From Candidatus Baldrarchaeota archaeon (GTDB lineage Archaea; Asgardarchaeota; Baldrarchaeia; Baldrarchaeales; DXJG01), in NCBI GenBank assembly GCA_016840485.1, contig JAEOSG010000002.1, positions 50,368 through 82,367 on the forward strand: 32,000 bases of DNA. Reading direction: 5' to 3'. Numbering within the stretch: the first letter of the stretch is position 1; every line of letters begins with the position of its first letter. Made by a program: the position numbers and the translations under genes. The notes beneath the pieces are model-generated. The model was not told the origin of the DNA, did not search any database, and saw only the letters and a list, made by a program, of their open reading frames with translations. Of this stretch, positions 3,941 through 29,205 are shown piece after piece.

Positions 3941-3958
3941 TCTTATATAATTGACCAC

Positions 3959-5053
3959 CTAACTGTCTGGGAGCCTGTATCTGAGTAAAGCTGCTATTCC
4001 ACCAAAATTTTCTAATTGTTTACCAGCTGGAGTATTTGCTGCAAAAATCATTACCTTTCCTCTTTTTTTCTCTGTTTCCCTTAACATTTCATCGAGTTTT
4101 TTTCTTTCTTCTTTTGATGATTCCCTAAGTTTTCTGTCAGTTACTAATATGGTATCTACCGCTCCTAAAATTACGGCTTTTTCTACGTTTTCCATTCCAT
4201 AAGTCACGGTACCACGTTCTTGACCTAGCCTTTTTAAGAATTCTTCTATAAGTTCAAGTTCCTCCTCAACGCGCATCTTCTCGGCGGCTTTTGAGATAAC
4301 ACCCCTACGAAGAACTTCATATACAGCGTTTTCGCCACCGCTACTGGCACTATCCACAACCACCTTACCTGAAAGTTCAGACATCTTTGAAACCAGATAT
4401 TCAGAAAAATGGTCTTTTACAAATCCAGGGCCAGCCACCACGATTACCGAAAAATTATTCGCTTTTCTAATGTTTTCTTCTACAACTTTAAAAACGTCAC
4501 TAAAAAATTTCTTAATTGCTTCATCGTGGTATTTCGAGTTTAATCTCTTACCTGGAATACTTTGAATAATTTGAGCCACTATTGTAATATCATAGTCACC
4601 AACTACTGCTATCGTTGCTTCGCCTTCTTCTATTGCTACTATAAGAGCCTTTGGCCTTCTAGCACTTTCTACAGCTTCTTTAATCCTCTTTAATATAAAA
4701 GTAGGCCATTCTTCCTTAATTATTTTTATTTGAGTACCAATATTAACGTTAATGGTATGATAGGATCCCAGTGCTCCTATATTATCGGGGGCCTCTATAA
4801 TTATTCCCTTAATTCTCAATCTATTTGTAAACTCATGAAAATCTACGCTTTCAACCTTTAAACCTAAATAAACAATTTTTTTCTCAACCTTTTTTCTTCT
4901 TTTCACTTCTTCGCCTCTTTCTATTTTTCGAAGAGTTTTTGCGTAAACGATGTCGCCTGGAGTAATAACGTTATAAAGATGCCATAAATCATCTAAATTC
5001 TCTGGAATAAGCGTAATTTCACCTCTTTTTAGATTTTTGTGAACAATTTTCAT
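3959..5053 (-). CDS. pelA: Pelota (Dom34) mRNA surveillance / ribosome rescue factor
   Basis: MKIVHKNLKRGEITLIPENLDDLWHLYNVI is a typical Pelota N-terminus, with an eRF1-like C-terminal domain. The start was moved to the MKIV methionine. Confidence 0.85.
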   Translation of the reverse strand: MKIVHKNLKRGEITLIPENLDDLWHLYNVITPGDIVYAKTLRKIERGEEVKRRKKVEKKIVYLGLKVESVDFHEFTNRLRIKGIIIEAPDNIGALGSYHTINVNIGTQIKIIKEEWPTFILKRIKEAVESARRPKALIVAIEEGEATIAVVGDYDITIVAQIIQSIPGKRLNSKYHDEAIKKFFSDVFKVVEENIRKANNFSVIVVAGPGFVKDHFSEYLVSKMSELSGKVVVDSASSGGENAVYEVLRRGVISKAAEKMRVEEELELIEEFLKRLGQERGTVTYGMENVEKAVILGAVDTILVTDRKLRESSKEERKKLDEMLRETEKKRGKVMIFAANTPAGKQLENFGGIAALLRYRLPDS

Positions 5054-5144
5054 CGATAGCACACTCGTATATCCTTTATGTACAATAAATTAAAGATAAC
5101 AACTTATTCATCATTATTTAAAGGCATGCAAATATATGCAATAA

Positions 5145-5633
5145 TTGAGGTCGAGGAGTTTGGAGTTTGACAAAAACACAAAAAAGGATATATCTAAAAA
5201 TATATTTATACGTTTGGTGCAAAGAACGGATCTGCGACGAATTTACGAAATAGAGATAGAATCTTTTAAAACTCCTTACTCTTTTTTTACTCTCCAAACG
5301 TTATTTTGGTTTAACAAAGAATATTTTTATGTTGCCGAAATAGATGGGAAAATAGTCGGGTACATAATAGGGGATGTAAGAAATAACCGTGGACACGTAG
5401 TTTCCATTGCTGTAGATTCGCAATATAGAGGAAAGGGTGTAGGAAAATGTTTAATGGAGGTTTTAATCAAGAAATTCAAGGAAACAAATATAAAAACGAT
5501 AAGACTAGAAGTTGCGGTCTCAAATCTGATTGCACAGACATTTTATAAGAAAATGGGATTTAGAGCTATTGGTCAAATCAAAAATTACTATAGAAATGGA
5601 GAGGATGCTTTTCTTATGGAAAAACGACTATAA
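5145..5633 (+). CDS. GNAT N-acetyltransferase, RimI/Ard1-like
   Basis: SIAVDSQYRGKGVGKCLM is an acetyl-CoA binding Q/RxxGxG motif in a GNAT-fold-sized protein. The true start may be downstream of the ORF-track start. Confidence 0.75.
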   Translation: MRSRSLEFDKNTKKDISKNIFIRLVQRTDLRRIYEIEIESFKTPYSFFTLQTLFWFNKEYFYVAEIDGKIVGYIIGDVRNNRGHVVSIAVDSQYRGKGVGKCLMEVLIKKFKETNIKTIRLEVAVSNLIAQTFYKKMGFRAIGQIKNYYRNGEDAFLMEKRL

Positions 5634-5735
5634 ACCAGCTTATGTACTAAGCTTTCTTACACTTTTAATATGCGATATTTTTAAGGGAAGTAACTAATCA
5701 TTTTAAATTTAGAGATATCGTAAAGAGGATAAACC

Positions 5736-9401: not shown

Positions 9402-10577
9402 TTAGCCTACTTCCTCAAAAGTGAGAACGGAAAGATCGACTGGGCACTTGGTTACGCCTCTTCTAACAGCACCAATAATATACTCGACTCCCTTTTCACC
9501 CGCAACGTCTACAAGTCTCTGAGTAATAACGCCGTCAAAGACTATAGCTCTTACGTTGTCCAATTTTTGTAGTGTCTCTGCTAGCTCACCAACTGAGGTC
9601 CTCTTTATAACCTTAAAACCATTTCCATATATTATTGCTTCACCTTTTCCACGTACTTCATCTATTCCCCTTAATATTTGTTCAGGAACTTTTACTTTCA
9701 CTTCTTCTCTAACAGCTTTCTGTTCTTCAACTCTAACCTTAACAGGTTGAATTTTCTTTAATTCTTCCTTTCTTCTTTCTACTGTAAATTGTTCAACCGG
9801 AAGTTTACTTCTTAACGCCTTAACTATTTCTTTCCTAGTTAATTCCTCTACTTCCCTTCCTGGAGGAGCCCTTGCAATATAATCGATATCAGCTACTTGT
9901 AGAAGTTCCTTAAGTATAAGTTCTCCTCCTCTATCTCCATCAACAAAAGCTATAACATTCTTTTTACGACTTAGCTCAATTATCGTCTTTGGAATGTTAG
10001 TTCCTTCAACAGCTATAACGTTCCTAAAACCATGTTTAAGAAGATTAATGACATCTGCTCTCCCTTCAACAACTATGATCGTATCGGCATCATCAATATT
10101 TGGCCCAGCTGGCAAACCCTCAGGACCGTATCTGATCAACTCACCGGTTCTTACAGCTCTCATAACCTGCTCTGTGATCTCCTGACTTTCAGGAACTACT
10201 TCTTCCTCCCATTTCCTTAAAATTTCTACAGCTCTTTCTACAATTCTCTTTCTTTTCTCCTCACGCACATCTTCAATTTTCTCTAAAGTAACCCTGGCTG
10301 TACACGGACCCACTCTATCAACAGTTTCAAGTGTAGCTGCTAAAATAGCAGTTTCTATCCTATCAAGGCTAGATGGAACTATTATCGTTCCTGTTGACTT
10401 TCCTCCCCTAGTTTCTAAATTAACTCTTATTCTACCTATTCTACCTGTCTTTTGCAATTCTCTTAAATCGAGTTCTTCACCTAATAATCCTTCAGTTTGA
10501 CCAAATATTGCTCCTACAACATCAGATTTTTCAACAACGCCATCTATTTCTATTCTCGCCTTAATAACATATTTCAT
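9402..10577 (-). CDS. dnaG: Archaeal DnaG primase-like Toprim protein (exosome-associated)
   Basis: MKYVIKARIEIDGVVEKSDVVGAIFGQTEGLLGE is a typical archaeal DnaG N-terminus. The Toprim core is IIVVEGRADV...FVDGDRGG. The start was moved to MKYV. Confidence 0.85.
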   Translation of the reverse strand: MKYVIKARIEIDGVVEKSDVVGAIFGQTEGLLGEELDLRELQKTGRIGRIRVNLETRGGKSTGTIIVPSSLDRIETAILAATLETVDRVGPCTARVTLEKIEDVREEKRKRIVERAVEILRKWEEEVVPESQEITEQVMRAVRTGELIRYGPEGLPAGPNIDDADTIIVVEGRADVINLLKHGFRNVIAVEGTNIPKTIIELSRKKNVIAFVDGDRGGELILKELLQVADIDYIARAPPGREVEELTRKEIVKALRSKLPVEQFTVERRKEELKKIQPVKVRVEEQKAVREEVKVKVPEQILRGIDEVRGKGEAIIYGNGFKVIKRTSVGELAETLQKLDNVRAIVFDGVITQRLVDVAGEKGVEYIIGAVRRGVTKCPVDLSVLTFEEVG

Positions 10578-10587
10578 CGTGTCATAT

Positions 10588-11010
10588 TCACTTTTTCCTA
10601 CCAAATTTGACACCTCCAAATGTTAAGTCTCTTCTATTCAGTCTCAGAAGAGTTTTCTTAATGCCTTCAATGCAGGATACTTGTCCTGCTAAGGCATGTT
10701 TAAGTTCGTTTCTCATTTCATGTAAAGGAATGGTTCCCCCTATTTCAAGAAGAGACGAAAGGGTTTTTGCTATTTTTTCCCCTTTTTCGTCAAAATCTGT
10801 AAGTATAAGAACTCTTCTACAGCCATATAATTGGTCAATTAGCGTGTTTAAACTTTGCTGAGATACTTTAATTATTCTTCCTTCTACCCCGAGAGTCCGA
10901 AGGACTTCTTCGTCCTTTTTCCCTTCAACCAGTATGGGAACGCCTTCGCTGGCTATTTCCCTTATTTTTTCAAGAGTCCTTTCTATTCTTTCTACTATTT
11001 CTTCTTTCAT
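10588..11010 (-). CDS. Small Toprim-domain protein (RNase M5 / small primase-like family)
   Basis: It shows PILVEGKKDEEVL and VLILTDFDEKGEKIA (the Toprim E and DxD motifs). Confidence 0.7.
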   Translation of the reverse strand: MKEEIVERIERTLEKIREIASEGVPILVEGKKDEEVLRTLGVEGRIIKVSQQSLNTLIDQLYGCRRVLILTDFDEKGEKIAKTLSSLLEIGGTIPLHEMRNELKHALAGQVSCIEGIKKTLLRLNRRDLTFGGVKFGRKK

Positions 11011-13906: not shown

Positions 13907-15043
13907 TTAGTAACCTATGCCTATCGTATTTCCAATACCCGCAACGAGAATAACGTCACCTGGTTTAGTTCTTTCATTTATTATCCTCTTTATTCTTTCT
14001 ACAACTTTTCTAGTTGCTTCTGCAATCTCTCTTCTCATTGGGGAAACAGCTTCTTCAATAGATTCCTTAATAATAATGGCATCTAGTGGTACTTTATATT
14101 TTGTTGCTACTTCTTCAATCTTGTATTTATCGATGCCAATCCCTCCGATAGCGGCGCCAACGCCTTCCATTATTCCTCCAGTTTTTTCACCTTCCAATTT
14201 AATACCAGCATCTATCATAATTATTCTATCGATTTTAAGTTTTCTTTCTTCAAAAAGTTTTCTAATGGCTTCTCCTGGTTTACCAACTGTACCTCCTGGT
14301 CCTCGTGCACGCACCGCAATTACAGTTCTATCATCTATCTTTGTTTGAGCAATTACAGTGTCTTTTACTATTTCTTCATATTGTTCCTTACCAACCACAC
14401 CGTGTTCTCTTAGCAATCTGGTCACGGAAAGAACACCTGCTCCGTCACCAATTGGCTTTCCGTCAACAAAAGCTTTCAAAGCATCAAAATAAGCGTTCGC
14501 ATATTTCATAATTTCTGGAAGCTGCATTTGAAGTTGAAGAATTAAAATATAACTTTTAGTTTTTTCCCCTAATATAAGAAAATGTCTAACAATCCTATAA
14601 ATGAAATTCAAAGCGATAATTGCCTCCAACACATTTTCCAAATTAGCAGCCTGATCCCTACTTACATTTGGCGCCAACTCAGCTACAATATGTTCAAACC
14701 TCTCATCTCTAACATTAACTAAGTGTTCCAACTTATACATAATGCCGGACGGATCTCTATCAACAGGCTCTATCATAAAGAACTCTAAAAAATCATTTAT
14801 TCTAGAAACAATATTTGCATCTGAATTTCCAACATCTCTAAACGCTTTAATGGTAATTTCCTTTCCCTTGCGAACCATGTATTCAAGTTTTTGTAATGCT
14901 CGCTTAATCTGCCTAACCCAAATACTTACTTGCAAGCGTTGTCCATAGAACATATATACCAAAAGTAACAACAACCAAATCCAGTTTATAATCCAATTCC
15001 AACTTTCTTGCTGCCACGGGAACTGCACAACAACCAACCTCAT
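13907..15043 (-). CDS. Conserved archaeal membrane-anchored protein of unknown function (possibly DUF1512-like)
   Basis: It is a long intact ORF with a Trp-rich N-terminal transmembrane helix. The family name comes from memory of its overall appearance only. Confidence 0.45.
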   Translation of the reverse strand: MRLVVVQFPWQQESWNWIINWIWLLLLLVYMFYGQRLQVSIWVRQIKRALQKLEYMVRKGKEITIKAFRDVGNSDANIVSRINDFLEFFMIEPVDRDPSGIMYKLEHLVNVRDERFEHIVAELAPNVSRDQAANLENVLEAIIALNFIYRIVRHFLILGEKTKSYILILQLQMQLPEIMKYANAYFDALKAFVDGKPIGDGAGVLSVTRLLREHGVVGKEQYEEIVKDTVIAQTKIDDRTVIAVRARGPGGTVGKPGEAIRKLFEERKLKIDRIIMIDAGIKLEGEKTGGIMEGVGAAIGGIGIDKYKIEEVATKYKVPLDAIIIKESIEEAVSPMRREIAEATRKVVERIKRIINERTKPGDVILVAGIGNTIGIGY

Positions 15044-15301
15044 ATCGATCTATGTACTATCACAAAAGCAATCAAAATAAATAAGAACATTACGGTTAGA
15101 GTTAAAAACAACAAATTTTCTTATAAAACGGAAAACAAGAATTACAGCATGTTATTTAAATAACAAACGCCACTACTCTATACATCTTCGATTGCTAGTT
15201 CAACAAACAAAAGCAACGTGCAAAATCAAATTAAAGCAATTTCCACCCCAGCAATAAGATAAATAAATTAGGAATTGAATGTGAAAAACTAGCTAATTAA
15301 C

Positions 15302-15457
15302 GGTGCGGCATCCTTCCGTGTTCGGAATGGGAACGGGTATTTCCCTCCGCACTATGGCCGCCTGCCGAAGCAGGCAGCTTCCCAGTTTCCCATCCCCTCG
15401 CGGAGGATAGTACTCCTGGGAACGTGCGGAGGCTTGACTTTCACGGGATGCCGCACC
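15302..15457 (-). rRNA. Circularly permuted 5S rRNA gene (3' half - UUCG - 5' half) enclosed by a bulge-helix-bulge processing stem. The predicted excised unit is 15315..15439 (125 nt).
   Basis: The minus strand contains GCAGGCGGCCAUAGUGCGGAGGGAAAUACCCGUUCCCAUUCCGAACACGGAAG (the 5S 5' half). This lies downstream of GUCAAGCCUCCGCACGUUCCCAGGAGUACUAUCCUCCGCGAGGGGAUGGGAAACUGGGAAGCUGCCUGC (the 5S 3' half). The flanks GGUGCGGCAUCC/GGAUGCCGCACC are perfectly complementary. Confidence 0.85.
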
Positions 15458-15478
15458 ACTTCTATCACAATCACCAAC

Positions 15479-15488
15479 CATATAAAAA
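15479..15488 (-). promoter_or_regulatory. TATA box (minus strand TTTTTATATG) upstream of the permuted 5S unit
   Basis: It is a box A-like element about 20-25 nt upstream of the first nucleotide of the flanking helix. A T5 run follows the unit on the minus strand (about 15283-15287). Confidence 0.5.
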
Positions 15489-15709
15489 CATTATCCTAAG
15501 AAAATTATAAAATAAAATGTTAAAGTAACTATCAAATTAAAAATCAATTAATTCGTTTAAAACGAGTTATTATGGTAGATAGCTTGTTCACTAATAACCC
15601 GCCCTCGCCACTCTGAAAAACCTTCCCTCATTAATAAACTATAATCATAATATTAAATATTAGCCGAAAAATTTATCAAACGAGAAAATACTAATAAAAA
15701 TAGGATGTA

Positions 15710-15882
15710 GGGGCCGTAGCCTAGCCAGGTGAGGGATTAGCACGAAACTAGGCCCCCTTAGGGGCGACGGGCTCCAGAAGCCCATACGACGGGTTTGTTG
15801 ACCGAAGTGGGATGAAGAACTTCTGGAGCGGTGAATTGAAGAAACCCGTTGGTCGAGGGTTCAAATCCCTCCGGCCCCACCA
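15710..15882 (+). tRNA. tRNA-Trp(CCA) with two introns: D-arm about 15733-15761 and canonical 37/38 at 15778-15843. CCA is encoded.
   Basis: Hand-folded. Acceptor GGGGCCG/CGGCCCC, D stem GCCU/GGGC, anticodon stem ACGGG/CCCGU, loop CUCCAGA, T arm GAGGG-UUCAAAU-CCCUC, A73. The exons sum to 78 nt. Confidence 0.8.
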
Positions 15883-16312
15883 ACTTTCCTTAAACTATAT
15901 TTTTTGAAACCACAAACCATCAGTTAACTCTACCAATTTACTTTTTACATTATTTAACCGCAATTCAAAGGTTAACAAACATAGCAATTTAATAATCAAC
16001 AACGTCAAAAACATAAATGGTTTAAAACAAGGTTATTGACCAAATACAAAATTTTAATGTATTACATCGCATCGTATCTGTAGGAAAATACTCTTCATAA
16101 AATCATTCAACACAATTTTCTATAAAATAAACGAAATGCATCCCATGCATCGTGCTTCGCATATTACTCCCATTTTAAGTCTCACATTGCAAAAATATAC
16201 ATTAAAGATAATATTATCCCTGTCCCATAAGAAACCTAAAATATAGCAGCAAACTTAAGTAAGGAACAAAATAATAACTAACATTGAAATGTTTGCGGAA
16301 TCTTCTAGAGGT

Positions 16313-16479
16313 GCCGGGGTAGCTCAGCCTGGTTGGAGCGCCGGACTAAAAACACACTACCAAGGGCGAAACTCATAGGGTACAGAAATTTATAGTCCCT
16401 TCCTGTGACATCCGGAGGTCCCGGGTTCGAATTGCCTAGACTTGCTGGTCTGGGCACGAAAATCCCGGCCCCGGCACCA
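16313..16479 (+). tRNA. tRNA, most likely elongator Met(CAT), with three introns: about 16348-16373, 16378-16409 and a T-loop intron about 16433-16463. CCA is encoded.
   Basis: Acceptor GCCGGGG/CCCCGGC, D arm GCUC-AGCCUGGUUG-GAGC, anticodon stem CCGGA/UCCGG, T arm CCGGG-UUCGAAU-CCCGG. Only the assembly CU+CAUA+A gives a legal anticodon loop (CUCAUAA). The exons sum to exactly 78 nt. Confidence 0.65.
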
Positions 16480-16650
16480 AAACACATCGGTTCTTGATCT
16501 TTATATTTAAGCTGTAGACAGTGTCAACTTAGTTCTTGCGTCAAACTAAAATCCTTTATATTCAACTTCACGATTTAAAGTAAAATGGTTTTTATTACGG
16601 AGCCCCTTTAAATCCGACATAAATACATGAACGATGAAGAGGGGTAAGAA

Positions 16651-17880
16651 TTGCATGAATTCGAATTTCTAACACTAGACGACGTTGAGGTATCGGGGAA
16701 AAAAGTGCTTCTCAGGGTTGACATAAATTCTCCTATAGACCCGGAAACATTAACGATTTTAGACGATTCAAGAATAAAAGCCATACTCACCACTCTCAAA
16801 GACCTAGAAGATGCAGCAGTAGTTTTAATGTCCCATCAAAGCAGACCAGGGAAAAAAGATTTTACCTCACTTGAACCTCATGTACGAATACTAAAAAAAT
16901 ATCTGGGTGACCGAGTAAAATTTATAGATGACATATTTGGCCCAGCAGCCAGAAAAGAAATAAGAAAACTGCCACCAGGAAAAATATTAGTCTTAGAAAA
17001 CGTTAGATTCTATTCGGAAGAAAACATCGAAGCTCCACCAAAAGTCCTTGCAAGAACCCATCTTGTCAGAAAACTAGCACACTTCTTCGATCTATTCGTA
17101 AACGACGCTTTCGCAGCCATACACAGATCCCAACCATCACTTGTAGGCTTCGCAGAAGTACTACCAACCGTTGCTGGAAGGCTTATGGAAAAAGAACTAA
17201 AAGCACTAAAAAAAGTATTACAAAACCCAGAAAAACCCTGCGTATTCTTCCTAGGGGGAGCAAAAGTACCAGACAAAATGGAAATAATGCTAACAGCACT
17301 CAAAAAAGGAAAAGCAGACAAAATACTACTGGGAGGGTTACTCGCAAACGTTTTCCTAGAGGCAGCAGGATACAACATTGGAGAAGAAAACAGAAAACCT
17401 CTACCGGATTTCGAAAAGCTAAAAAACAAAGCAAAAACCATACTAGAAAAATACAGAGACGCAATAGAACTGCCAAAAGACGTAGCAGTAGAAATAAACA
17501 ACGAAAGAATGGAAGTGCCCATAGACAAACTACCAGTAAAAGGACAAATAAAAGACATAGGAATAAACACAATCATACACTACTCAAAAATACTATCAAA
17601 CGCAGCAACCATAGTAGCAAACGGACCAGCAGGAATATTCGAAGAAAGACAATACGCCATAGGAACAACAGAAATCCTACACTCAATAGCAAACTCAAAA
17701 GCCTACAAAGTAATAGGAGGAGGACACCTAGGAGCCATAGCAAACATACTAAACCTAAACACAAAAATCAACCACATATCCACAGGCGGAGGAGCAGCTT
17801 TGTCGCTACTTGCAGGACAAAAACTACCAGTAATAGAAGCTCTAACAAAAGCAGCAAAGAGACACAAAACCTATCACTAG
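16651..17880 (+). CDS. pgk: Phosphoglycerate kinase
   Basis: It shows VLLRVDINSPI, MSHQSRPG and a C-terminal ISTGGGA motif. The length fits archaeal PGK. It has a TTG start. Confidence 0.9.
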   Translation: MHEFEFLTLDDVEVSGKKVLLRVDINSPIDPETLTILDDSRIKAILTTLKDLEDAAVVLMSHQSRPGKKDFTSLEPHVRILKKYLGDRVKFIDDIFGPAARKEIRKLPPGKILVLENVRFYSEENIEAPPKVLARTHLVRKLAHFFDLFVNDAFAAIHRSQPSLVGFAEVLPTVAGRLMEKELKALKKVLQNPEKPCVFFLGGAKVPDKMEIMLTALKKGKADKILLGGLLANVFLEAAGYNIGEENRKPLPDFEKLKNKAKTILEKYRDAIELPKDVAVEINNERMEVPIDKLPVKGQIKDIGINTIIHYSKILSNAATIVANGPAGIFEERQYAIGTTEILHSIANSKAYKVIGGGHLGAIANILNLNTKINHISTGGGAALSLLAGQKLPVIEALTKAAKRHKTYH

Positions 17881-18075
17881 CAACAAACTCCCATAACTCC
17901 TTAAAAACATTGTAAATCGCACGGCAACGCTTTGACACTAACTTTAAATACACAAAACCATTAAAAGGCCTAAACACCTAACAACCATAGGAAATTCCTA
18001 GAAAGGGATCAAAGGTAACGACAAACTTATATTTACTTATTAAAGAAAATACCTATGGAGAAAACTGAAAAGGAA

Positions 18076-18202
18076 GCCGCCGTAGCTCAGCCGGTAGAGG
18101 AAAACAAGCGCCGAAAGCGGCGGACTTGTAAATTTGAGGCTATAGAGCCTTGTAAGTCGAGAGATCCGCTGGTCGCGGGTTCAAATCCCGCCGGCGGCTC
18201 CA
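18076..18202 (+). tRNA. tRNA-Thr(TGT) with two introns: D-arm 18099-18116 and 37/38 at 18131-18163. CCA is encoded.
   Basis: Acceptor GCCGCCG/CGGCGGC, U73, anticodon stem GCGGA/UCCGC, loop CUUGUAA, T arm GCGGG-UUCAAAU-CCCGC. The exons sum to 76 nt. Confidence 0.8.
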
Positions 18203-18300
18203 CTAATTTGTTTTTGTAGTTTTTGATGTTGTTTTATATGGTGGTTGCTATTGGGTGGAATTCGAGTTTGTGTTTGTATTTTTTGTTTAGTGTTTTTATT
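18203..18300 (+). repeat. T/G-rich low-complexity tract immediately 3' of tRNA-Thr(TGT)
   Basis: It has almost no A or C on the plus strand and contains TTTTTGATGTTGTTTTAT. Related tracts lie at 25268 and 29206. Confidence 0.6.
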
Positions 18301-19135
18301 GCGTTTTTGTTGGGTAGTGTTTTTCTTTTACAAATTCTATGCCTTCTACTTCTCTTAGATATTTTTCAAAGATATCCCAGACGTTGGTGAACCATTTTAA
18401 GTTGTTTTTCTTGGCGTAGTTGTATAGATTTTCTTCGACGTACTCATGAAATATTTTTGCGATGGCTAATTCCTTTTCTGAAAGTTCTTCTTCCCAAGGG
18501 AGGGGTGAACCGTGGGCTTCTGCGTCAAAATTTACGAAGTCTATCCAGTTTGCTTCGCTTCTTAACCATTTTTCAACAACATATAAAGATACTTTGTAAA
18601 AGAAGAGTTGTTCTCCTTCTAGCTTTACAACTTTTATTCTTTCGCTGTATTGCTTGAGTTCTTCATGTATGTCGAACATGTGCTCGGATGAAATTGTGGA
18701 TATTACGCGTCCCTTAACTATCTTTTCAATATTATCTCTGTGTTTTTTGTCTTCTAGCATTTTTTTGCGCATTTTCTGAAAGTTATCCAGCGCCTTTTTG
18801 CAGCATTTGCTTTCTGGCTTCTTATTGAAAATAATCGTGTTGTAACAGCACTCTTTTGGACATTTCCAACCTGCAATATTTCTTTCTTCTTCGGTGTAGG
18901 GTTCTTCGTTGTAATCTGTTGGATATTCTATGCCTATAAGGGATCTTTTGCAGTCTCTCTCATCAAGGTGTAAAGTGAAGGTTATTTTGGGTTCTATGGT
19001 GTCTATTAAACCTTTTTTCATCATTTCTTCGATAATATATATCATTATGATGTAAATTGTATCAATAATATAGTAGTGGTTTATTTCTTGTATCATGTGG
19101 AACATCCATTCTTCGTTTTCGGGAAGTTTCGTCAT
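18296..19135 (-). CDS. Hypothetical protein with no recognisable family (cytosolic, Cys cluster CPKECC...CCKK). Last gene of the orphan operon.
   Basis: It is an intact 279-aa ORF with GGGGG 7 nt upstream of the ATG. It is tightly packed behind the upstream gene. Confidence 0.6.
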   Translation of the reverse strand: MTKLPENEEWMFHMIQEINHYYIIDTIYIIMIYIIEEMMKKGLIDTIEPKITFTLHLDERDCKRSLIGIEYPTDYNEEPYTEEERNIAGWKCPKECCYNTIIFNKKPESKCCKKALDNFQKMRKKMLEDKKHRDNIEKIVKGRVISTISSEHMFDIHEELKQYSERIKVVKLEGEQLFFYKVSLYVVEKWLRSEANWIDFVNFDAEAHGSPLPWEEELSEKELAIAKIFHEYVEENLYNYAKKNNLKWFTNVWDIFEKYLREVEGIEFVKEKHYPTKTQ

Positions 19136-19148
19136 AACATGCCCCCTA

Positions 19149-20894
19149 TTATATTATTTGTTGCAGTATTTGTGTTGTAATGGTTCCTATGGCTATTCCT
19201 AGTAGGTATGTTGTGGGACCTCCGTTGGCGAATATTTGTATTGATGTGTCGATGGTTGGCCATATGATTTTTTCAAAGATCCATGCGTTGTTGCCGAATA
19301 GGGTTCTGGCGATGTATGGGATGGCTTGAGCGGCAAGAATCACGTTGTTTCCCTCTATTAGCATTTGTAGGAGCATGCCGTTTAGGATGCTTCCCAGAAA
19401 TGTTTGTAGTAAGACTTTTACCATGTCCTTTAAGCTCCCGTCATTGTTTTTGTTTGTTAGTAGGTTTGAGAAGTCTTGGTAGTCGTCGATGTTCATTAGA
19501 GCGTAGCTTATTAATGCTAGGATTACGTAAACTTTAATTTTCCCTTTTCCAGCTTTTAGAGTTCCTTTGAAGTTTTCTGGGAGTTTAACGTATACTTCCA
19601 TTCCTATCCTCGTTCCAAGGAAGCACGTTGATGCAAATAGAGCTATGCAAAGTACGCTTGTCTTGGACAAATCCGGTTTACTCAACGTCTTTTGGAGTAA
19701 GCTTTTGAATGTGCCGCTGACTTTTCCCTTTGTACATGTGTATTTTTCCCAGTTTATTTTCTTGGATTTGCCTTCAATTATTTTCTGGGTTATTTCGTTT
19801 GGTAGTTTTCTGTTTTCGTCGAAGTGCCATGAAAATGTTTCGTCGTCGATGAGGGCTAATGTTGCAGCTCTCATTACGTGTCCCCAAACGTCTCCTTCGT
19901 TGAGAACATTTTTTGCTGGTGGTATTGATAGGTATTCCCAACAAACTTTCCTAAGATTATCTTTGGCTATCAATCCTTCTAAAATAGTTCCATAAATTTT
20001 TTCTTTAGCTGTGACTTTAAATTCGTGTAAATTATATTTTGCTTCGTCTAGAGCTACAAAATTTATTGCTTCACTTTTTTCACGCCACTTCGAAACTCCT
20101 GTAAATCTTTTTTCTCGTCCTAAATAATCATTTTCCTCTATGAACTTTGTGTAGGAGTTATGTAGTAATTTGTAGTTTTCGTTTAGTATTTTTGTTAATT
20201 CGAGTTTGATGTTTTCAATTTTTGATGCTTCTGTATCTAGTCCTTCGCTTCTTAGTCTCTCTGCGGTGTCTTCTAGTATCCATTTGGTGGCAACTAATCC
20301 CAAGTGTGGTTCGCGGAGGAAAGGTGGGTCTGCTGAAATAATTACTCCCCGAATCTTTCCTTCAAATATAGTTGGATGCGCATCGAAAGTTGTTTGTGAA
20401 ATTAATTCGAAAAGCGAGGGGTCTGTTCCTTTGGATTCTCTATATAATTTTCTAATTTCATTCCAAACTTTAGCTTGTTCTAACACTAAATGCTTGACTT
20501 TACCTAGATGTTCTTTCCATTTTTCGTTTAATTTACATTTATCAAATCTGTATAATGCGTTTTTTACTCGATCTCCTTGTCTTCCTTTTACTATTGATGC
20601 CACTTTTCCATAATTGTCTTTAAATTGTCTTTCTCTGGGGTTTACTCCTATTAATATTCTGAAGCCCGTGAGCGTGTAGTCCCTTGCTTCAACTCTGTAT
20701 TCTACGAAATCGCTTATCAAGATAGATTTCTCATATCGTTTGTTTGTGAAATTTTCTTCGAACTTCTTTTTTCCATCTTGAAATTTCTCAATAGGATTTT
20801 CTTCAGGGTCCGTGAACTGATTTAGGTAGCCCTCCCAAATGACTGCAAAGACGACATGTTCTCCATCTATAAATGTGTGAATTGTTTGAACCAT
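19149..20894 (-). CDS. Hypothetical large protein: soluble N-terminal part of about 400 aa plus a C-terminal region of about 170 aa with several predicted transmembrane helices
   Basis: It is an intact 581-aa ORF. Its ATG lies 2 nt after the upstream stop (TAAGGATG). Hydrophobic stretches include VLCIALFASTCFLG, VYVILALISYALM and LLGIAIGTITTQIL. Confidence 0.65.
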   Translation of the reverse strand: MVQTIHTFIDGEHVVFAVIWEGYLNQFTDPEENPIEKFQDGKKKFEENFTNKRYEKSILISDFVEYRVEARDYTLTGFRILIGVNPRERQFKDNYGKVASIVKGRQGDRVKNALYRFDKCKLNEKWKEHLGKVKHLVLEQAKVWNEIRKLYRESKGTDPSLFELISQTTFDAHPTIFEGKIRGVIISADPPFLREPHLGLVATKWILEDTAERLRSEGLDTEASKIENIKLELTKILNENYKLLHNSYTKFIEENDYLGREKRFTGVSKWREKSEAINFVALDEAKYNLHEFKVTAKEKIYGTILEGLIAKDNLRKVCWEYLSIPPAKNVLNEGDVWGHVMRAATLALIDDETFSWHFDENRKLPNEITQKIIEGKSKKINWEKYTCTKGKVSGTFKSLLQKTLSKPDLSKTSVLCIALFASTCFLGTRIGMEVYVKLPENFKGTLKAGKGKIKVYVILALISYALMNIDDYQDFSNLLTNKNNDGSLKDMVKVLLQTFLGSILNGMLLQMLIEGNNVILAAQAIPYIARTLFGNNAWIFEKIIWPTIDTSIQIFANGGPTTYLLGIAIGTITTQILQQII

Positions 20895-20896
20895 CC

Positions 20897-21658
20897 TTAT
20901 TTCGCCAAAAATCTATAATAATGACTGGTAACTTTACCCTTACTTACAGTTTTTCTGTAATCCATGATTATCATCGAAATTTTTCCGTTTTTATCAAATT
21001 TAACAAGATCCTTACATCTGATATCCTTATTACTAACTATTTTATCGATTTTATCGACCAGATTTCTGGTTATCAACGCGTCATACCAGCTTTCCCTTGT
21101 CCAACCTTCCCGTACAACTAAGTATATATCGTCAGTTCTTACAAAGTTCATCTTTTTAACCAGATCAGAACTTCCGAGAACTTCGTATAGATATTTGAAA
21201 ACCTTCTCCTGATCCCTACTTGTAAAAGAACCGTAAGCCATTATGTTGGTCTTTGTTTTATCTCTCCCGGCCCATGGCCATTTGATTATACCTGATAGTA
21301 TTCCTGATATTAGCCAGGCATTGTATATTTTTATCCAGGATTTTAACTGGATTTCTAAGGGTTGTAAACCGATTATAAAGTTCAGTATTTTATTTACTGT
21401 TTTCATGAAGAGGTTCACTATTTTTTTGGGTATTCTTCCTTCAGCTACAAGTTCAGATAAAAGATAAACCAAGCCTAAATAACTGTCAACTGAAAAATTC
21501 ACAAAGTTAAACCAAACTTCCTCAAAAATACCCTTTATCTTATCCCAAACGTTGTTAAAGGGCTTAACTAAAGTATCTGTAAGCTTTTTAACAGCAGACT
21601 TAAAAGTTACCTCACTATAAGCAACAGCATTATCTAAGAACCTTACACTTGGATCCAC
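20897..21658 (-). CDS. Hypothetical membrane-associated protein
   Basis: It is an intact 253-aa ORF with a GTG start and hydrophobic segments YLGLVYLLSELVA and AWLISGILSGIIKWPW. No family is recognised. Confidence 0.55.
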   Translation of the reverse strand: MDPSVRFLDNAVAYSEVTFKSAVKKLTDTLVKPFNNVWDKIKGIFEEVWFNFVNFSVDSYLGLVYLLSELVAEGRIPKKIVNLFMKTVNKILNFIIGLQPLEIQLKSWIKIYNAWLISGILSGIIKWPWAGRDKTKTNIMAYGSFTSRDQEKVFKYLYEVLGSSDLVKKMNFVRTDDIYLVVREGWTRESWYDALITRNLVDKIDKIVSNKDIRCKDLVKFDKNGKISMIIMDYRKTVSKGKVTSHYYRFLAK

Positions 21659-21682
21659 CCAACCATCTAAAATCTTCTTAAC

Positions 21683-22735
21683 TCAACTCAAATCTACACC
21701 TAAAACTTTCGACAATACCCCTAGAAGTTTATCCATTGTCCAAGAGAAATATTTCAATATTCCTCGTGCACACTTCGCTATCGCAGCAATTATTAAAGCA
21801 GCGACAAGCCCGCTAAGAGCTTTACCAGCCTTAACCATAGAATAAGCTACAGAAACAATCGTCTTCAAATATCGCTTAGCAAAACTTATTACAAAGTTTG
21901 CACCGCGAAAAACGGTGTTATCTAGGGTTGTTTTTACTGGGCTTCGTATCCACTTGTTCCACGGGGCATTAAATGTTTCATCAATCCACCTATAAACCGC
22001 AGATTTAATATCATAATAATATTTGTAAATTGTATCGAAAATTTCATCGACAAGCAAAATTACCTTTCTAACTTCAACAACACTAGCCTCAATCTTCCCC
22101 GTAACACCATCTCCAAAACATTTCCTCTCGTTTTTTGGTGGTTTCCAAAATCTTCCAGCGACAACAGGTATACCCCTAGATTCATATTTATGTTTGAAAC
22201 TTATTTTTGAACCTCTGGCACCGAATGTTTCACGTTTTGACACGACTTCGTAACTTACATGTTTAACCCTTCTCTTTACATAGCTTTTCGGAGGATCTCC
22301 GCGATGAATCACAACCTTAACATTTTTCCTATGAAGTGTGACCTTATAAGCCCGCCTAGAAACAACTCTCCTCTTAAATCTAGATCTTAATCCCAGAGTT
22401 ACATTGTCATTGCCATCGTAAATTTCATAGGGGTTAATTGTCGAATTTGTTTCCTCAATTTTATCTACAACTCTAAATTCTATATATCCTTCTACTATTT
22501 CGCCAGTAAAATTATCGATGATCTCAACGGGTAGATATACATGTTCCTCAATCAACTCGTAGGTTCCAGCTGATAAAACTGATTGAACAGAAGCAATATA
22601 ATCTCCATTTAAATAAGTTTCTCCCTCATAAGTTAATATTTGTGCATCGCTAAATTTTTCGAAGAAAGCAACCACGGAACTATTACCGTAAATTTCTTTT
22701 TTCCCTACCCATGTTACAAAATGGCAAATAAACAA
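21683..22735 (-). CDS. Hypothetical protein, third frame-segment of a probably single F-E-D gene. It has a very basic middle region and a hydrophobic C-terminal anchor.
   Basis: The ORF opens only 2 codons after an in-frame TAA. It has a TTG start and no RBS. It overlaps the end of the upstream segment across an A6 run. C-terminus: LSGLVAALIIAAIAKCA. Confidence 0.55.
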   Translation of the reverse strand: MFICHFVTWVGKKEIYGNSSVVAFFEKFSDAQILTYEGETYLNGDYIASVQSVLSAGTYELIEEHVYLPVEIIDNFTGEIVEGYIEFRVVDKIEETNSTINPYEIYDGNDNVTLGLRSRFKRRVVSRRAYKVTLHRKNVKVVIHRGDPPKSYVKRRVKHVSYEVVSKRETFGARGSKISFKHKYESRGIPVVAGRFWKPPKNERKCFGDGVTGKIEASVVEVRKVILLVDEIFDTIYKYYYDIKSAVYRWIDETFNAPWNKWIRSPVKTTLDNTVFRGANFVISFAKRYLKTIVSVAYSMVKAGKALSGLVAALIIAAIAKCARGILKYFSWTMDKLLGVLSKVLGVDLS

Positions 22736-23267
22736 ATTTTAGTCTGTTTAGATACTCTATTCTTAATTTTTTTGCTAAGTGTTCTAATGTTTTTCCGTTA
22801 ACAACAGCTACGTTGTTTTCTCCATGCATTAGCATACCGTGTATCTGCAAAGTTTCATTTAGAACTCCATGAGCCAAAATTACTAGGTAAACTTCACTTG
22901 CTCTTCGATCCTCCTCAGCTAACCACAACAAATACACCAGGTTCATCGCAGTACAATAATTTCCTGTTAGAATTATTGATGCATCTCCAACCTCCTCAGC
23001 AAACCTCAAAATCTCATCAACAACAATCCGCGTACGCTCATCACAAAACAACGATTCATTCAATATCTCGATATCAGTAGATAAAAACGCTAAAACAAGC
23101 ACACCTGTATTATTAATATTCTCCACAGATTTCAGAAAAATTTCTTTGGTATCTTCACTCAGCCTACCGGTTGCATCTATTCCAGTAACCCAGTCTTCCC
23201 TTATGCTAGAGTTTAATACAATACCCTGACCAATGTTTGAGGCTTTACTAGTCGGAGAAATCACCAC
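22683..23267 (-). CDS. Hypothetical protein, second frame-segment of the F-E-D gene
   Basis: It has a GTG start and no RBS, and overlaps both neighbours. It contains VYLVILAHG ... FVYLPFCNMG (a His-Gly / Cys pair, each after a hydrophobic strand). Confidence 0.5.
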   Translation of the reverse strand: MVISPTSKASNIGQGIVLNSSIREDWVTGIDATGRLSEDTKEIFLKSVENINNTGVLVLAFLSTDIEILNESLFCDERTRIVVDEILRFAEEVGDASIILTGNYCTAMNLVYLLWLAEEDRRASEVYLVILAHGVLNETLQIHGMLMHGENNVAVVNGKTLEHLAKKLRIEYLNRLKFVYLPFCNMGREKRNLR

Positions 23268-23484
23268 CCTGCTGACCAGTTTTTTCTTCCCAAACAGTTA
23301 TTGGTGAACCATTAGTAAACCCACGGAAATGCGGGTCAAAACTATCAATGTAGATTTCTGGCTTTTTAACTCTAGTTAATTCACCTAAGATCGTACCATC
23401 GTTTGTTGCTATTAGTCTACTAGTTGAAACCTCCAATAATAAAACTATTAAAATCAATATCCCCGCTACAAGCTTATTTTTCAC
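23248..23484 (-). CDS. Hypothetical secreted or membrane N-terminal segment (signal peptide or TM) of the F-E-D gene
   Basis: A strong RBS GGAGGGUGA lies 3 nt upstream of GTG 23484. The N-terminus is MKNKLVAGILILIVLLL. Confidence 0.6.
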   Translation of the reverse strand: MKNKLVAGILILIVLLLEVSTSRLIATNDGTILGELTRVKKPEIYIDSFDPHFRGFTNGSPITVWEEKTGQQGGDFSD

Positions 23485-23503
23485 ATTTCACCCTCCTAAT
23501 TCC

Positions 23504-23514
23504 TAAATAAAAAT
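23504..23514 (-). promoter_or_regulatory. Candidate TATA box (minus strand ATTTTTATTTA) for the orphan operon
   Basis: It is an AT-rich box A-like element about 20 nt upstream of the GGAGGGUGA RBS of the first ORF. Confidence 0.4.
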
Positions 23515-23980
23515 CGGCGGCAAGGTTTAAATAGCCCGATGTGAACAGGTTCAAAAACATGACAAAATACTTCATAACCTAAAATAACAACCGATTAAAA
23601 AATTAAAATACAAAAATATGTATCTTTTAACTAAATGTACCTCATGTCCTAATCTCGATCTTTTTTAATTATTTGACGAATGTCGATAGCGAGGACAAAA
23701 TTTAGGTATAACACTGTTAAGATGATACTTTCTTTAGCAAATTTTTATAAATCACTTATAAGTACGGTACCTAAAAACCACTGATTGTGGCATGTTTCTA
23801 GCTATTTACAAAAATAAATTTTTAATAATAAGATTAGGAAAATTATTATCTAAATTAACTCAATGTCTTTTTACAAAATATTCAATGTCTTGTTAAATTT
23901 TCGACTGCTTTTAACTTTTTAAATACTTTTCAGCAAAAATTATCGATAAGTTCTAATGTTCTTTCATAAGGGAACTTATT

Positions 23981-24172
23981 TCATTTCTTTTTCTCTATGA
24001 TTAGTCTTTTTCCGTGTATGTCTATTTTTACTATGACTTCTTCTCTATGTTTGAAGGGAAAAGCCGTATCGTTTGCAACTTGGCTTGGAATGTAAATCCA
24101 TGTCTTTTTGTATTTTTTGTTTTTTGTTTTTGTTTCTCTGACGATGATGCGTCCTAGGCCTTCTTTAGCCAT
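23981..24172 (-). CDS. Small basic AbrB/SpoVT-like DNA-binding protein (candidate regulator)
   Basis: It has 63 aa. WIYIPSQVANDTAFPFKHREEVIVKIDIHGKRLIIEK resembles the swapped-hairpin pattern (xIPxxhxxxh.h..Gd.v.h....g..hhh.k). The N-terminal half is Lys-rich. Confidence 0.5.
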   Translation of the reverse strand: MAKEGLGRIIVRETKTKNKKYKKTWIYIPSQVANDTAFPFKHREEVIVKIDIHGKRLIIEKKK

Positions 24173-24365
24173 TATTTCATTCCTCTTGGTAAAAATGTAT
24201 ATTCATTTTATTGGATAACCAATTTAGTTCTTTTTGAAGACCAAAAGGGTCTACCACTTTGGTGAACTAACATTTATAAGTTCTTCCCACAATAATTGGT
24301 ATACCAACAATGAGCAAGATGCCCAGCAATCATTTAAACCCTAAAAATGACGGAGGATAAAGAAA

Positions 24366-24623
24366 TTGAGTGAAATGAAACTGAAATGCCGCTTTTATTT
24401 GGAGAAAAAACATAGATGCCTGATTAGTGGAGCCATATGTGCTTTTCCGGTTTCTTTTGGGAAAGAAAAATACTGTGATACGTATAGATTTGATTTCGAA
24501 AAGTGGTTCGAAGACATTGTCTTGGAATTGGCAAGAAAAAATAGTATTTTGGAATACTACGACGAGTCATCATGTTGCTTTTCGCGTGATGATGCAACTG
24601 ATGGGCACAGAAATAGATCGTAG
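24366..24623 (+). CDS. Hypothetical small Cys-rich protein (uncertain; may continue in the overlapping 24427-24711 frame)
   Basis: Two overlapping plus-strand ORFs cover 24366-24711. Neither has a recognisable family. Confidence 0.3.
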   Translation: MSEMKLKCRFYLEKKHRCLISGAICAFPVSFGKEKYCDTYRFDFEKWFEDIVLELARKNSILEYYDESSCCFSRDDATDGHRNRS

Positions 24624-24934
24624 AGTAGATTATACCTATGAGGACATTCACAGAATTGTGGAGAAAAACTGGAGAGAATTAGTTAAAACTAGTATAGTCC
24701 ATAAGATCTAAAAATGGCGTAGTGCATGCTTGACATTTTCTTCTTACTTCATATAATGTGATTTCTTTCTTATTTGTGGGTTGTAAGGGTGTGATGAGGT
24801 ATGTTCTTTATGTGTTGTTATTTTTAGGTTTGATTTATTAATAAATCCATAAGTCTTTTATTGCTTTTTACTAAAGCTATGTTAGAAAACTATTTAAAGC
24901 AGATATTGTTCACCCTTTATGCAGTTACTATCTA

Positions 24935-25072
24935 GGGGCCGTGGTCTAGGGATAGGCAGACCAAACCTGCTTATCGGAGAACTTGGTATGATGCTGGGTT
25001 TGGGACCCAGTGGACTAGCAGAGTTTTCTCTGCTAGGCTGAATCCCGGGTTCAAATCCCGGCGGCCCCACCA
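24935..25072 (+). tRNA. tRNA-Pro(TGG) with two introns: between D stem and anticodon stem about 24962-24992, and in the variable loop about 25013-25041. CCA is encoded.
   Basis: Acceptor GGGGCCG/CGGCCCC, D arm GUCU-AGGGAUAGGC-AGAC, anticodon arm CUGGG-UUUGGGA-CCCAG, T arm CCGGG-UUCAAAU-CCCGG. The second intron holds a perfect 9-bp hairpin CUAGCAGAG-UUUU-CUCUGCUAG. The exons sum to 78 nt. Confidence 0.75.
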
Positions 25073-25130: not shown

Positions 25131-25267
25131 GCGGGGGTGGCCGAGACCGCCAAAAACTATAATAGCGGCGGAAACCAGGACAAAGGGGCTGGATTCCGTT
25201 AAAAGGCGCCGGACTTAAGATCCGGTGGCGTAGGCCTGCGTGGGTTCGAATCCCACCCCCCGCACCA
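25131..25267 (+). tRNA. tRNA-Leu(TAA) with two D-arm introns (about 25146-25173 and 25187-25206). CCA is encoded.
   Basis: Acceptor GCGGGGG/CCCCCGC, anticodon arm CCGGA-CUUAAGA-UCCGG, long variable arm UGGCGUAGGCCUGC, T arm GUGGG-UUCGAAU-CCCAC. Confidence 0.8.
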
Positions 25268-29099: not shown

Positions 29100-29203
29100 T
29101 GGAGCCGCCGGCGGGATTTGAACCCGCGACCCCGTCCTTACCAAGGACGTGCTTTGGCCCGTTTTTATTTCTGCTTTGTCTGACCAGGCTGAGCTACGGC
29201 GGC
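29100..29203 (-). tRNA. tRNA-Thr(GGT) with one D-arm intron (29153-29178). CCA is encoded.
   Basis: The minus strand reads GCCGCCG-UA-GCUC-AGCCUGGUCA-GA[26 nt]GC-A-CGUCC-UUGGUAA-GGACG-GGGUC-GCGGG-UUCAAAU-CCCGC-CGGCGGC-U-CCA. Confidence 0.8.
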
Positions 29204-29205
29204 AT

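Follow-up and report, generated by a model that had tools for sequence, protein, structure and literature searches.

A decaying giant-gene copy behind an apparent six-gene operon in a tRNA-flanked slot of a Baldrarchaeota genome

The window considered here is the whole stretch of 32,000 nucleotides that was analysed from Candidatus Baldrarchaeota archaeon (assembly GCA_016840485.1, contig JAEOSG010000002.1, positions 50,368 to 82,367 of the forward strand), and all coordinates are counted from its first letter. An initial annotation, made from the letters alone, had described in it an orphan operon of six secreted or membrane proteins, the open reading frames (ORFs) F, E, D, C, B and A, which run leftwards on the minus strand from a single ribosome-binding site and are accompanied by an AbrB-like gene in a space between tRNA genes. 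The window holds no new multi-protein system; what it holds is a decaying copy of a giant gene, together with some orphan ORFs and a variable slot that tRNA genes flank. The reading favoured overall, which is very probably correct, is that F-E-D-C-B is one gene whose local copy is a pseudogene, within an accessory block of the tRNA slot that is itself in decay. Of the six ORFs, only A is a second gene.

The giant gene and its lesions

When one A was deleted from each of two A6 runs and an in-frame TGA was taken as Trp, F, E, D and C joined into a continuous protein of 861 aa. This reconstruction aligns with P0003 and P0005-P0008, proteins of 1,447-1,484 aa from metagenome-assembled genomes (MAGs) of Baldr- and Odinarchaeia, at 53-61% identity and 98-100% coverage, and B aligns with the C-terminal 40% of the homologues at 38-48% identity. 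In the multiple alignment the five ORFs lie colinear and end to end along the intact homologues, and each ORF boundary is internal to one continuous protein in six of them. A search with B by itself matched near-identical sequences only; this reflects the limit of the word prefilter, through which the distant homologues were missed, and is not evidence of B as an independent orphan. The initial annotation had proposed to look for the same set of genes, in the same order, in other genomes: the ORFs are joined into one protein in every homologue, and close strains differ in which of them are fused. The pieces and their signals are laid out below, the ORFs and the ribosome-binding site standing where the initial annotation had placed them.

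19149-23484, minus: pseudogene of a ~1,450-aa Asgard-specific giant membrane protein (F+E+D+C+B)
23488-23497, minus: Shine-Dalgarno-like AGGAGGGTGA, immediately 5' of the GTG at 23484, read from the sequence
23248-23484, minus: ORF F, 78 aa, GTG start at 23484; the fragment has the same limits, carries a signal peptide or N-terminal anchor and covers residues 1 to ~67 of the ancestral protein
22683-23267, minus: ORF E, 194 aa; the fragment has the same limits and is an alpha/beta domain with the invariant His-Gly (VILAHG) and Cys (FVYLPFCNMG)
21683-22735, minus: ORF D, 350 aa; fragment at 21686-22696, a beta-rich region, a basic linker and the first helical or hydrophobic segment
20897-21658, minus: ORF C, 253 aa; fragment at 20897-21682, helical and amphipathic
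19149-20894, minus: ORF B, 581 aa; the fragment has the same limits and is the C-terminal 40% with the polytopic hydrophobic block included
18296-19135, minus: ORF A, 279 aa

The gaps and overlaps of 2-25 nt, which had been taken as the spacing of tightly packed genes, are frameshift and nonsense scars at F/E, E/D, D/C and C/B. In the three-frame translation, F to E and E to D each cross an A6 run, and D and C share one frame with only the TGA between them.

23280-23285, minus: frameshift 1, A6 run, +1 nt; removal of one A restores the F to E frame
22697-22702, minus: frameshift 2, A6 run, +1 nt; A5 in L018/P0004
21683-21685, minus: nonsense mutation, TGG>TGA, in frame, splits D from C
20907-20911, minus: frameshift 3, T5 run at the C/B junction, -1 nt

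The restored F/E junction reads ...VWEEK/LVSRVVISP... and agrees with ...WEEEIIxRVxVSP of the homologues, and addition of one T at the C/B junction gives ...HYYRFFGEIRMVQTIHTFIDG, in agreement with their ...RWLGEIxxVQVIHTHIDG. At frameshift 2 the repair exists in nature: L018/P0004, which is 99.7% identical, misses the A at 22702 and has E and D fused into 526 aa, with P0004 reading ...CNMGREKEIYGNSS..., and it carries a new 1-nt deletion at 21430, within C. In place of the TGA, L005 likewise has TGG (Trp), as do all intact homologues (DLSWVKKIL); in L005 this leaves a D-C fusion of 592 aa, next to a 27-nt in-frame insertion in B. Two ways of reading through the breaks were considered and ruled out: selenocysteine at the in-frame TGA, where the homologues have Trp and L005 has TGG, and a programmed -1 frameshift at A_AAA_AAC, the downstream frame being +1.

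The window is matched at 100% identity by the JGI metagenome contig L002 and at 99.7-99.9% by contigs of other samples, and the same lesions were found in independent assemblies (ENA ERZ650341 and ERZ27227314; JGI 3300028891 and 3300014911; Logan SRR14699971). Near-identical strains (99.7-99.9%) differ in the subset of lesions that they carry, the lesion haplotypes observed number at least five, and the products in the 90%-identity cluster that contains C and D range from 114 to 592 aa. Larger losses occur as well. In L004, L015, L016 and L017, from four samples, a 4.5-kb deletion joins 24539 to 20041 at a CAAAATA microhomology and takes the putative promoter region, the 63-aa ORF described below and the N-terminal 60% of the giant gene. 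A third haplotype, L026, is without 19239-24766 (a 5.5-kb deletion), and in JGI 3300014911 long and deleted haplotypes are present in one sample. The lesions are genuine and recent, and the gene is a pseudogene in the middle of its decay.

How recent the decay is can be judged from the B half, for which the comparison of the long with the deleted haplotype (L004 allele) gave an omega (ratio of nonsynonymous to synonymous rates) of 0.155 at a synonymous divergence (dS) of 0.36. The giant gene was thus under purifying selection for most of this divergence, and was functional until recently.

The slot between the tRNA genes

The block occupies a slot whose boundaries are two intron-bearing tRNA genes, and the genes flanking it are housekeeping genes (PGK, methylmalonyl-CoA epimerase and mutase, acyl-CoA dehydrogenase). 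PGK and PolB belong to 90%-identity clusters with NCBI labels of Candidatus Odinarchaeota or Baldrarchaeia, which places their owner among the Asgard archaea. The flanking tRNA genes lie where the initial annotation had put them. The only detection by ARAGORN was tRNA-Leu(TAA); tRNA-Pro(TGG) was found by Rfam at a relaxed threshold, where it scored under the tmRNA model, which belongs to the same clan as tRNA.

18203-24934: the accessory block entire, 6.7 kb, between tRNA-Thr(TGT) and tRNA-Pro(TGG)
18076-18199 (to 18202 as slot boundary), plus: tRNA-Thr(TGT) with intron, Rfam 47.5 bits, left slot boundary
23981-24172, minus: 63-aa orphan ORF, across an AT-rich spacer
24366-24711, plus: small divergent gene, 85 + 94 aa in two overlapping frames
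24935-25072, plus: tRNA-Pro(TGG) with long intron, anticodon loop UGG, right slot boundary
25182-25267: tRNA-Leu(TAA), from ARAGORN

The slot was compared among metagenome contigs using PGK as an anchor. In relatives of ~85-88% DNA identity, tRNA-Thr(TGT) and tRNA-Pro(TGG) are separated by ~218 bp (L023) and ~300 bp (L021), and in L024 the slot is filled by an unrelated 1.8-kb gene for a membrane-anchored protein of 478 aa. The homology of these relatives to the window ends at 18204-18219 and resumes at 24822-24885. The L024 gene lies at 3884-5657 on the minus strand of its contig, and glycoside-hydrolase-like motifs (YYPWY, ISWWG) can be seen in its product by eye. The block is accessory, in a slot that is empty or otherwise filled in relatives and from which other haplotypes have lost most of the block, and in this the initial annotation, which had called the position that of accessory cargo, was borne out. 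The two outcomes that it had named as speaking against itself, placement of the proteins in housekeeping families and conservation of the block at this locus in all relatives, were not found.

Traces of exchange are seen at the edges of the slot. Between the long haplotype and L004, dS is 0.02 in acyl-CoA dehydrogenase, 0.20 in PGK, 0.36 in B and 1.25 in A; this steep rise toward the slot points to recombination with divergent alleles around it. Along 16500-20041 of the window (10101-15192 of L004) the divergence, which is 1-2% on the right flank, reaches 10-30% over the 3' end of PGK, tRNA-Thr, A and B. The jump (dS of 0.2-1.25 versus 0.02) indicates that a tract of a divergent allele was imported, rather than fast evolution on the spot.

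Gene A is a separate, lineage-restricted orphan gene. In the window alone it has suffered a 1-nt deletion at ~18308 (a missing A), which alters its last ~20 residues and leaves 279 aa, as compared with 300 aa in L001, L003 and L005; it is split in L015-L017 and L026. Against the L004 allele it shows an omega of 0.15 (dS 1.25), so that it is, or was, a real gene. Its clusters number only three in 5.8 billion, without a family match in Pfam or NCBIfam or a sequence match in the PDB, and A is not linked to the giant gene in other genomes. A kinship with the HEAT-repeat-like partner gene of 439-492 aa, which accompanies some of the intact homologues, was considered and dropped, as BLASTP and hhalign show no relationship.

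The 63-aa ORF is present as described, across an AT-rich spacer with a GC content of 0.30-0.32, and is confined to near-identical strains; elsewhere it is not linked to the giant family. Its label as an AbrB/SpoVT protein did not hold up, there being no match in Pfam (E≤1), NCBIfam or the PDB sequences (E≤10). Further to the right, the small gene at 24366-24711 is apparently frameshifted, and its 5' half is lost in the haplotype with the 4.5-kb deletion, where it is cut at 24539. No family matches were obtained for either of these ORFs upstream of the giant gene.

The neighbourhoods of the intact homologues are unrelated to one another, and tRNA genes recur in them at the following places.

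L006, L012: intron-bearing tRNA, 55 bp downstream of the partner gene
L010, L014, L038: tRNA-Gly(TCC), ~460-490 bp upstream of the giant gene
L010: intron-bearing tRNA-Gly(GCC), downstream
L008, L009, L013: tRNA-Ala(TGC), ~780 bp upstream of the giant gene
L039: no tRNA detected within 6 kb

In four of five distinct contexts the distance from a tRNA gene to the giant gene, alone or taken together with its downstream partner, is thus no more than 0.8 kb. A genome of ~2 Mb is assumed here to have ~45-50 tRNA genes, and with this assumption the chance probability of such proximity in four of five contexts is of the order of 1e-5. Proximity beyond chance points to a family that behaves as cargo of tRNA-flanked variable loci.

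Some further observations concern these neighbourhoods. The cassette tRNA-Gly(TCC)-giant gene-HEAT-like gene stands in opposite orientations in L010 (9435-16240) and L038 (5470-12230), set against the same flanks, an NTP transferase/S3Ae side and a DUF362/LUD side, and in L010 it is flanked by two inverted tRNA-Gly genes, which suggests a tRNA-mediated inversion. Genes with NOV_C, SACS, PLDc_2, HEPN and Mrr_cat domains lie near intact homologues (L006 2407-7122, L010 16618-20836, L039 2095-3823); such genes are typical of defence or variable islands.

Signs of mobility were also followed in the window itself. A 34-nt match between 18171-18204 and 29098-31 was considered as an att pair and rejected, as it is the common 3' half of two inverted isoacceptors, tRNA-Thr(TGT) and tRNA-Thr(GGT). 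The second of these, with an insertion in its D region, lies at 29101-29205 on the minus strand and was missed both by ARAGORN and at the Rfam gathering threshold. All other tRNA-like repeats in the repeat search were the T-arms of other tRNAs. Matches of fragment C to tape-measure proteins in PHROGs (E of 1e-3 to 1.5e-2) were set aside as weak similarity of helical, hydrophobic low-complexity sequence, with no other viral signal beside it.

Outside the slot, the 1.6 kb at 15043-16651 have no ORF of 110 aa or more and are probably a cluster of RNA genes with intron-bearing tRNAs: at the relaxed Rfam threshold they contain a tRNA-shaped match (15710-15882, plus), scored under tmRNA like the intron-bearing tRNA-Pro, and two sub-threshold 5S rRNA matches (15246-15365 and 15369-15478, minus). 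A Toprim/primase-like gene at 9402-11010 (minus) is called as a pair of overlapping ORFs, of 140 aa and of 400-405 aa, in all strains examined; either the gene has two parts by nature or this is another case of a frameshift.

The intact parent and the competing explanations

The character of the protein is read here from its intact relatives. These have a hydrophobic N-terminal segment at residues ~7-25, a hydrophobic helix near residue 560 and, toward the C-terminus, several further hydrophobic segments within the final ~180 residues, so that the hydrophobic start, the helix in the middle and the C-terminal block, which had been distributed over separate proteins by the initial annotation, are seen in a single chain. 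An exhaustive profile search with the E-D region returned 20 proteins at E≤1e-3 among 1.84 billion representatives. The full-length matches with a taxonomic name are from Baldrarchaeia, Odinarchaeota and Heimdallarchaeota, for example J7J30_01860 (Ca. Odinarchaeota archaeon) and Q6368_003120 (Ca. Baldrarchaeota archaeon), and other labels are attached to a small number of fragmentary matches from short contigs. The parent family, as yet uncharacterised, is all but confined to Asgard archaea. That no known family would be recognised was correctly foreseen: the fragments, A, the 63-aa ORF and the intact homologues gave nothing significant in Pfam, PHROGs, NCBIfam or PADLOC, and sequence and profile searches of the PDB with the full family and with the alignment of the N-terminal domain gave no match at E≤10.

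The best conserved part is the N-terminal domain, in which Asn89, His113-Gly114, Gly124 and Cys164 do not vary even where identity falls to 21-29%, with H113, G114 and C164 kept across 12 sequences. An AlphaFold2 model of E-D (P0004, 99% identical) is confident for the first ~210 residues only (pLDDT, the predicted local distance difference test, of 75-94), 60% of the model being of low confidence, and that of fragment B (mean pLDDT 41) was unusable and excluded from the structure search. In the model the elements come in the sequence strand, helix, strand, helix, strand-HG, hairpin, helix, strand-x-C, in which the invariant His and Cys follow the predicted strands E124-130 and E175-180. With the E-D model as query, Foldseek found no match at E≤1e-3 in the PDB or BFVD; the top matches were the vWA-like domains of Ku (E of 4e-3), above the chains of caspase-7, caspase-9 and an ancestral caspase (E of 0.2-0.6, TM-score up to 0.42 when normalised to the target). 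In hhalign against human caspase-3 the probability was 0.2-0.5%, though the invariant His falls on caspase His121.

On the mechanism that is proposed, the intact parent would be exported by the Sec pathway and anchored in the membrane as a cell-surface protein, and its N-terminal alpha/beta domain with the invariant His-Gly...Cys may be a cysteine hydrolase of a clan-CD-like (caspase-type) kind, tethered through a long helical region to a C-terminal polytopic anchor. This is the likeliest of the mechanisms considered, and it is put forward as a tentative hypothesis only. In the window, two +1-nt insertions in A runs, the TGG>TGA change and the -1-nt deletion in a T run have inactivated the gene and created the apparent ORFs F to B, and the block is on its way out of the species by strain-specific point lesions and microhomology-mediated deletions. 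The family itself would travel as accessory cargo of tRNA-adjacent variable loci. A broader proposal, of an Asgard-restricted class of giant surface proteins with a divergent caspase-type head, moved via tRNA-adjacent loci, possibly as a small relative of the aloposons compared below, and now being purged in this copy, is more speculative still and rather doubtful as a whole.

The explanation with which the locus was first approached, a true operon of five or six separate genes for secreted or membrane proteins, had in its favor that the ORFs are co-oriented and closely packed behind one Shine-Dalgarno-like site and belong to no known family. It is refuted by the alignment in which all of their boundaries are internal to a single protein; the boundaries moreover fall at homopolymer indels or at TGG>TGA and vary among strains of 99.7-99.9% identity, which leaves this explanation with next to no credibility. 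Hardly any more can be given to the idea that the gene is intact and the frameshifts are errors of sequencing or assembly. Every frameshift does lie in a homopolymer, but identical lesions recur across independent samples, assemblies and pipelines, one lesion is a substitution, and housekeeping genes nearby contain similar runs and are unbroken. A functional gene that is split or switchable, through phase variation, programmed frameshifting or the use of the fragments as subunits, is also very unlikely, if slightly less so. All three frameshifts are in A or T runs and polymorphic in the population, the protein is predicted to be at the surface and would be of the kind that phase variation usually targets, and omega in the B half is low; the low omega, however, records the long history that preceded the breaks. 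Four independent lesions would have to revert or be bypassed together, in runs of just 5-6 nt and with a nonsense substitution, which is not slippage, among them; F to E and E to D need +1 shifts, whereas the A_AAA_AAC site would give -1, and the 4.5-kb and 5.5-kb deletions of other haplotypes are irreversible.

The decaying pseudogene in an accessory block, which is thus preferred, has to be weighed against several observations of its own, all of which count against it to some degree. B retains an ATG start and its entire membrane block, and individual fragments may keep some residual function. Single-nucleotide polymorphisms in the giant gene among near-identical long haplotypes (nine nonsynonymous, six synonymous) are compatible with relaxed constraint, at too few sites for proof. 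The hydrolase idea failed all the statistical tests that were tried (Pfam, PDB, hhalign, Foldseek). On the side of mobility, no tRNA was detected within 6 kb of the intact homologue in L039, no integrase, transposase or partition ATPase was found among the window ORFs by Pfam and other library scans, direct and inverted repeat searches of the block gave no att duplication or terminal repeats, and no relatives were found in viral contigs. The same facts bear on a further rival, in which the block was left behind by a self-mobile, tRNA-targeting, aloposon-like element as its remnant and is not passive cargo of a hotspot. For this speak the tRNA genes just downstream of the giant gene (and its partner) in the window, L006/L012 and L010, those upstream in L008/L009/L013 and L010/L014/L038, the differing genomic contexts, the occurrence of empty sites, and the report that aloposons bear giant genes and have their integration sites at tRNAs downstream of these (PMC8813620). 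Against it stand, besides the missing integrase, transposase or MinD/ParA-like gene and viral matches, the lack of a direct repeat of the tRNA sequence and the single gene of 1,450 aa where aloposons have tandem genes of 3,000-6,000 aa. A remnant of this kind is therefore judged unlikely, although it is clearly the strongest of the rival explanations.

With the pseudogene reading, a false "six-gene orphan system" is removed from the annotation, and the case demonstrates that homopolymer frameshifts in a giant gene can mimic an operon of novel proteins. The locus is an instance of gene loss under way in an uncultured Asgard population. The cell-surface and mobile-element biology of Asgard archaea is little known, and here there is a family that is nearly exclusive to them, with a conserved His/Cys head and a recurrence at tRNA-flanked variable sites; the useful objects for its study are the intact homologues P0003, P0005-P0008 and P0069 rather than the window copy.

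Comparison with described systems

The nearest relative of the window copy is the ~1,450-aa Baldr/Odinarchaeia family itself, with which it shares full-length colinearity, the signal peptide, the His-Gly...Cys domain, the helix in the middle and the C-terminal hydrophobic block. It differs by its three frameshifts and one stop, by its locus, and by what follows it, which is the orphan A here and the 439-492-aa HEAT-repeat-like partner in L006, L010, L012, L014 and L038. Beyond this family, two giants of Heimdallarchaeota with LamG domains, P0076 (2,661 aa) and P0078 (1,988 aa), carry the same His-Gly...Cys domain at their N-terminus (E of 6.6e-16 and 1.4e-11 against the profile), but they are much longer, possess Laminin_G_3 lectin domains and are unrelated in the remainder.

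The model of the N-terminal domain resembles the clan CD peptidases (caspase, metacaspase, legumain, CHAT) in its predicted order of beta-strand-(S/T)HG, hairpin, helix and beta-strand-x-C, with the His before the Cys, and the "AT..N(L/I)" helix ahead of the His strand and the alpha/beta fold class are likewise shared. The difference is that no significant sequence or structure match connects the two, and that the domain would here form the extracellular head of a giant membrane protein. For a tRNA-integrating provirus or integrative element, an integrase ORF or Pfam match, att repeats and viral-contig relatives were looked for without success, and the degenerate viral module that the initial annotation had kept as an option has found no viral relatives.

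The closest described objects are the aloposons of Ca. Heimdallarchaeum, in which very large orphan genes form the core of the element and a tRNA gene follows them (Wu et al. 2022; PMC8813620). In these, genes of 3,000-6,000 aa stand in tandem behind four upstream genes that include a MinD/ParA-like ATPase, and fragmented and truncated copies of the giant genes have been reported among them (PMC8813620). The block in the window differs in having one ~1,450-aa gene without tandem giants, and, in place of a MinD/ParA-like upstream module, only the 63-aa ORF and the small frameshifted gene. The likeness lies in the position of the tRNA: tRNA-Thr(TGT) is found ~30-95 bp past gene A in the window, and a tRNA likewise lies downstream in L006/L012 and in L010.

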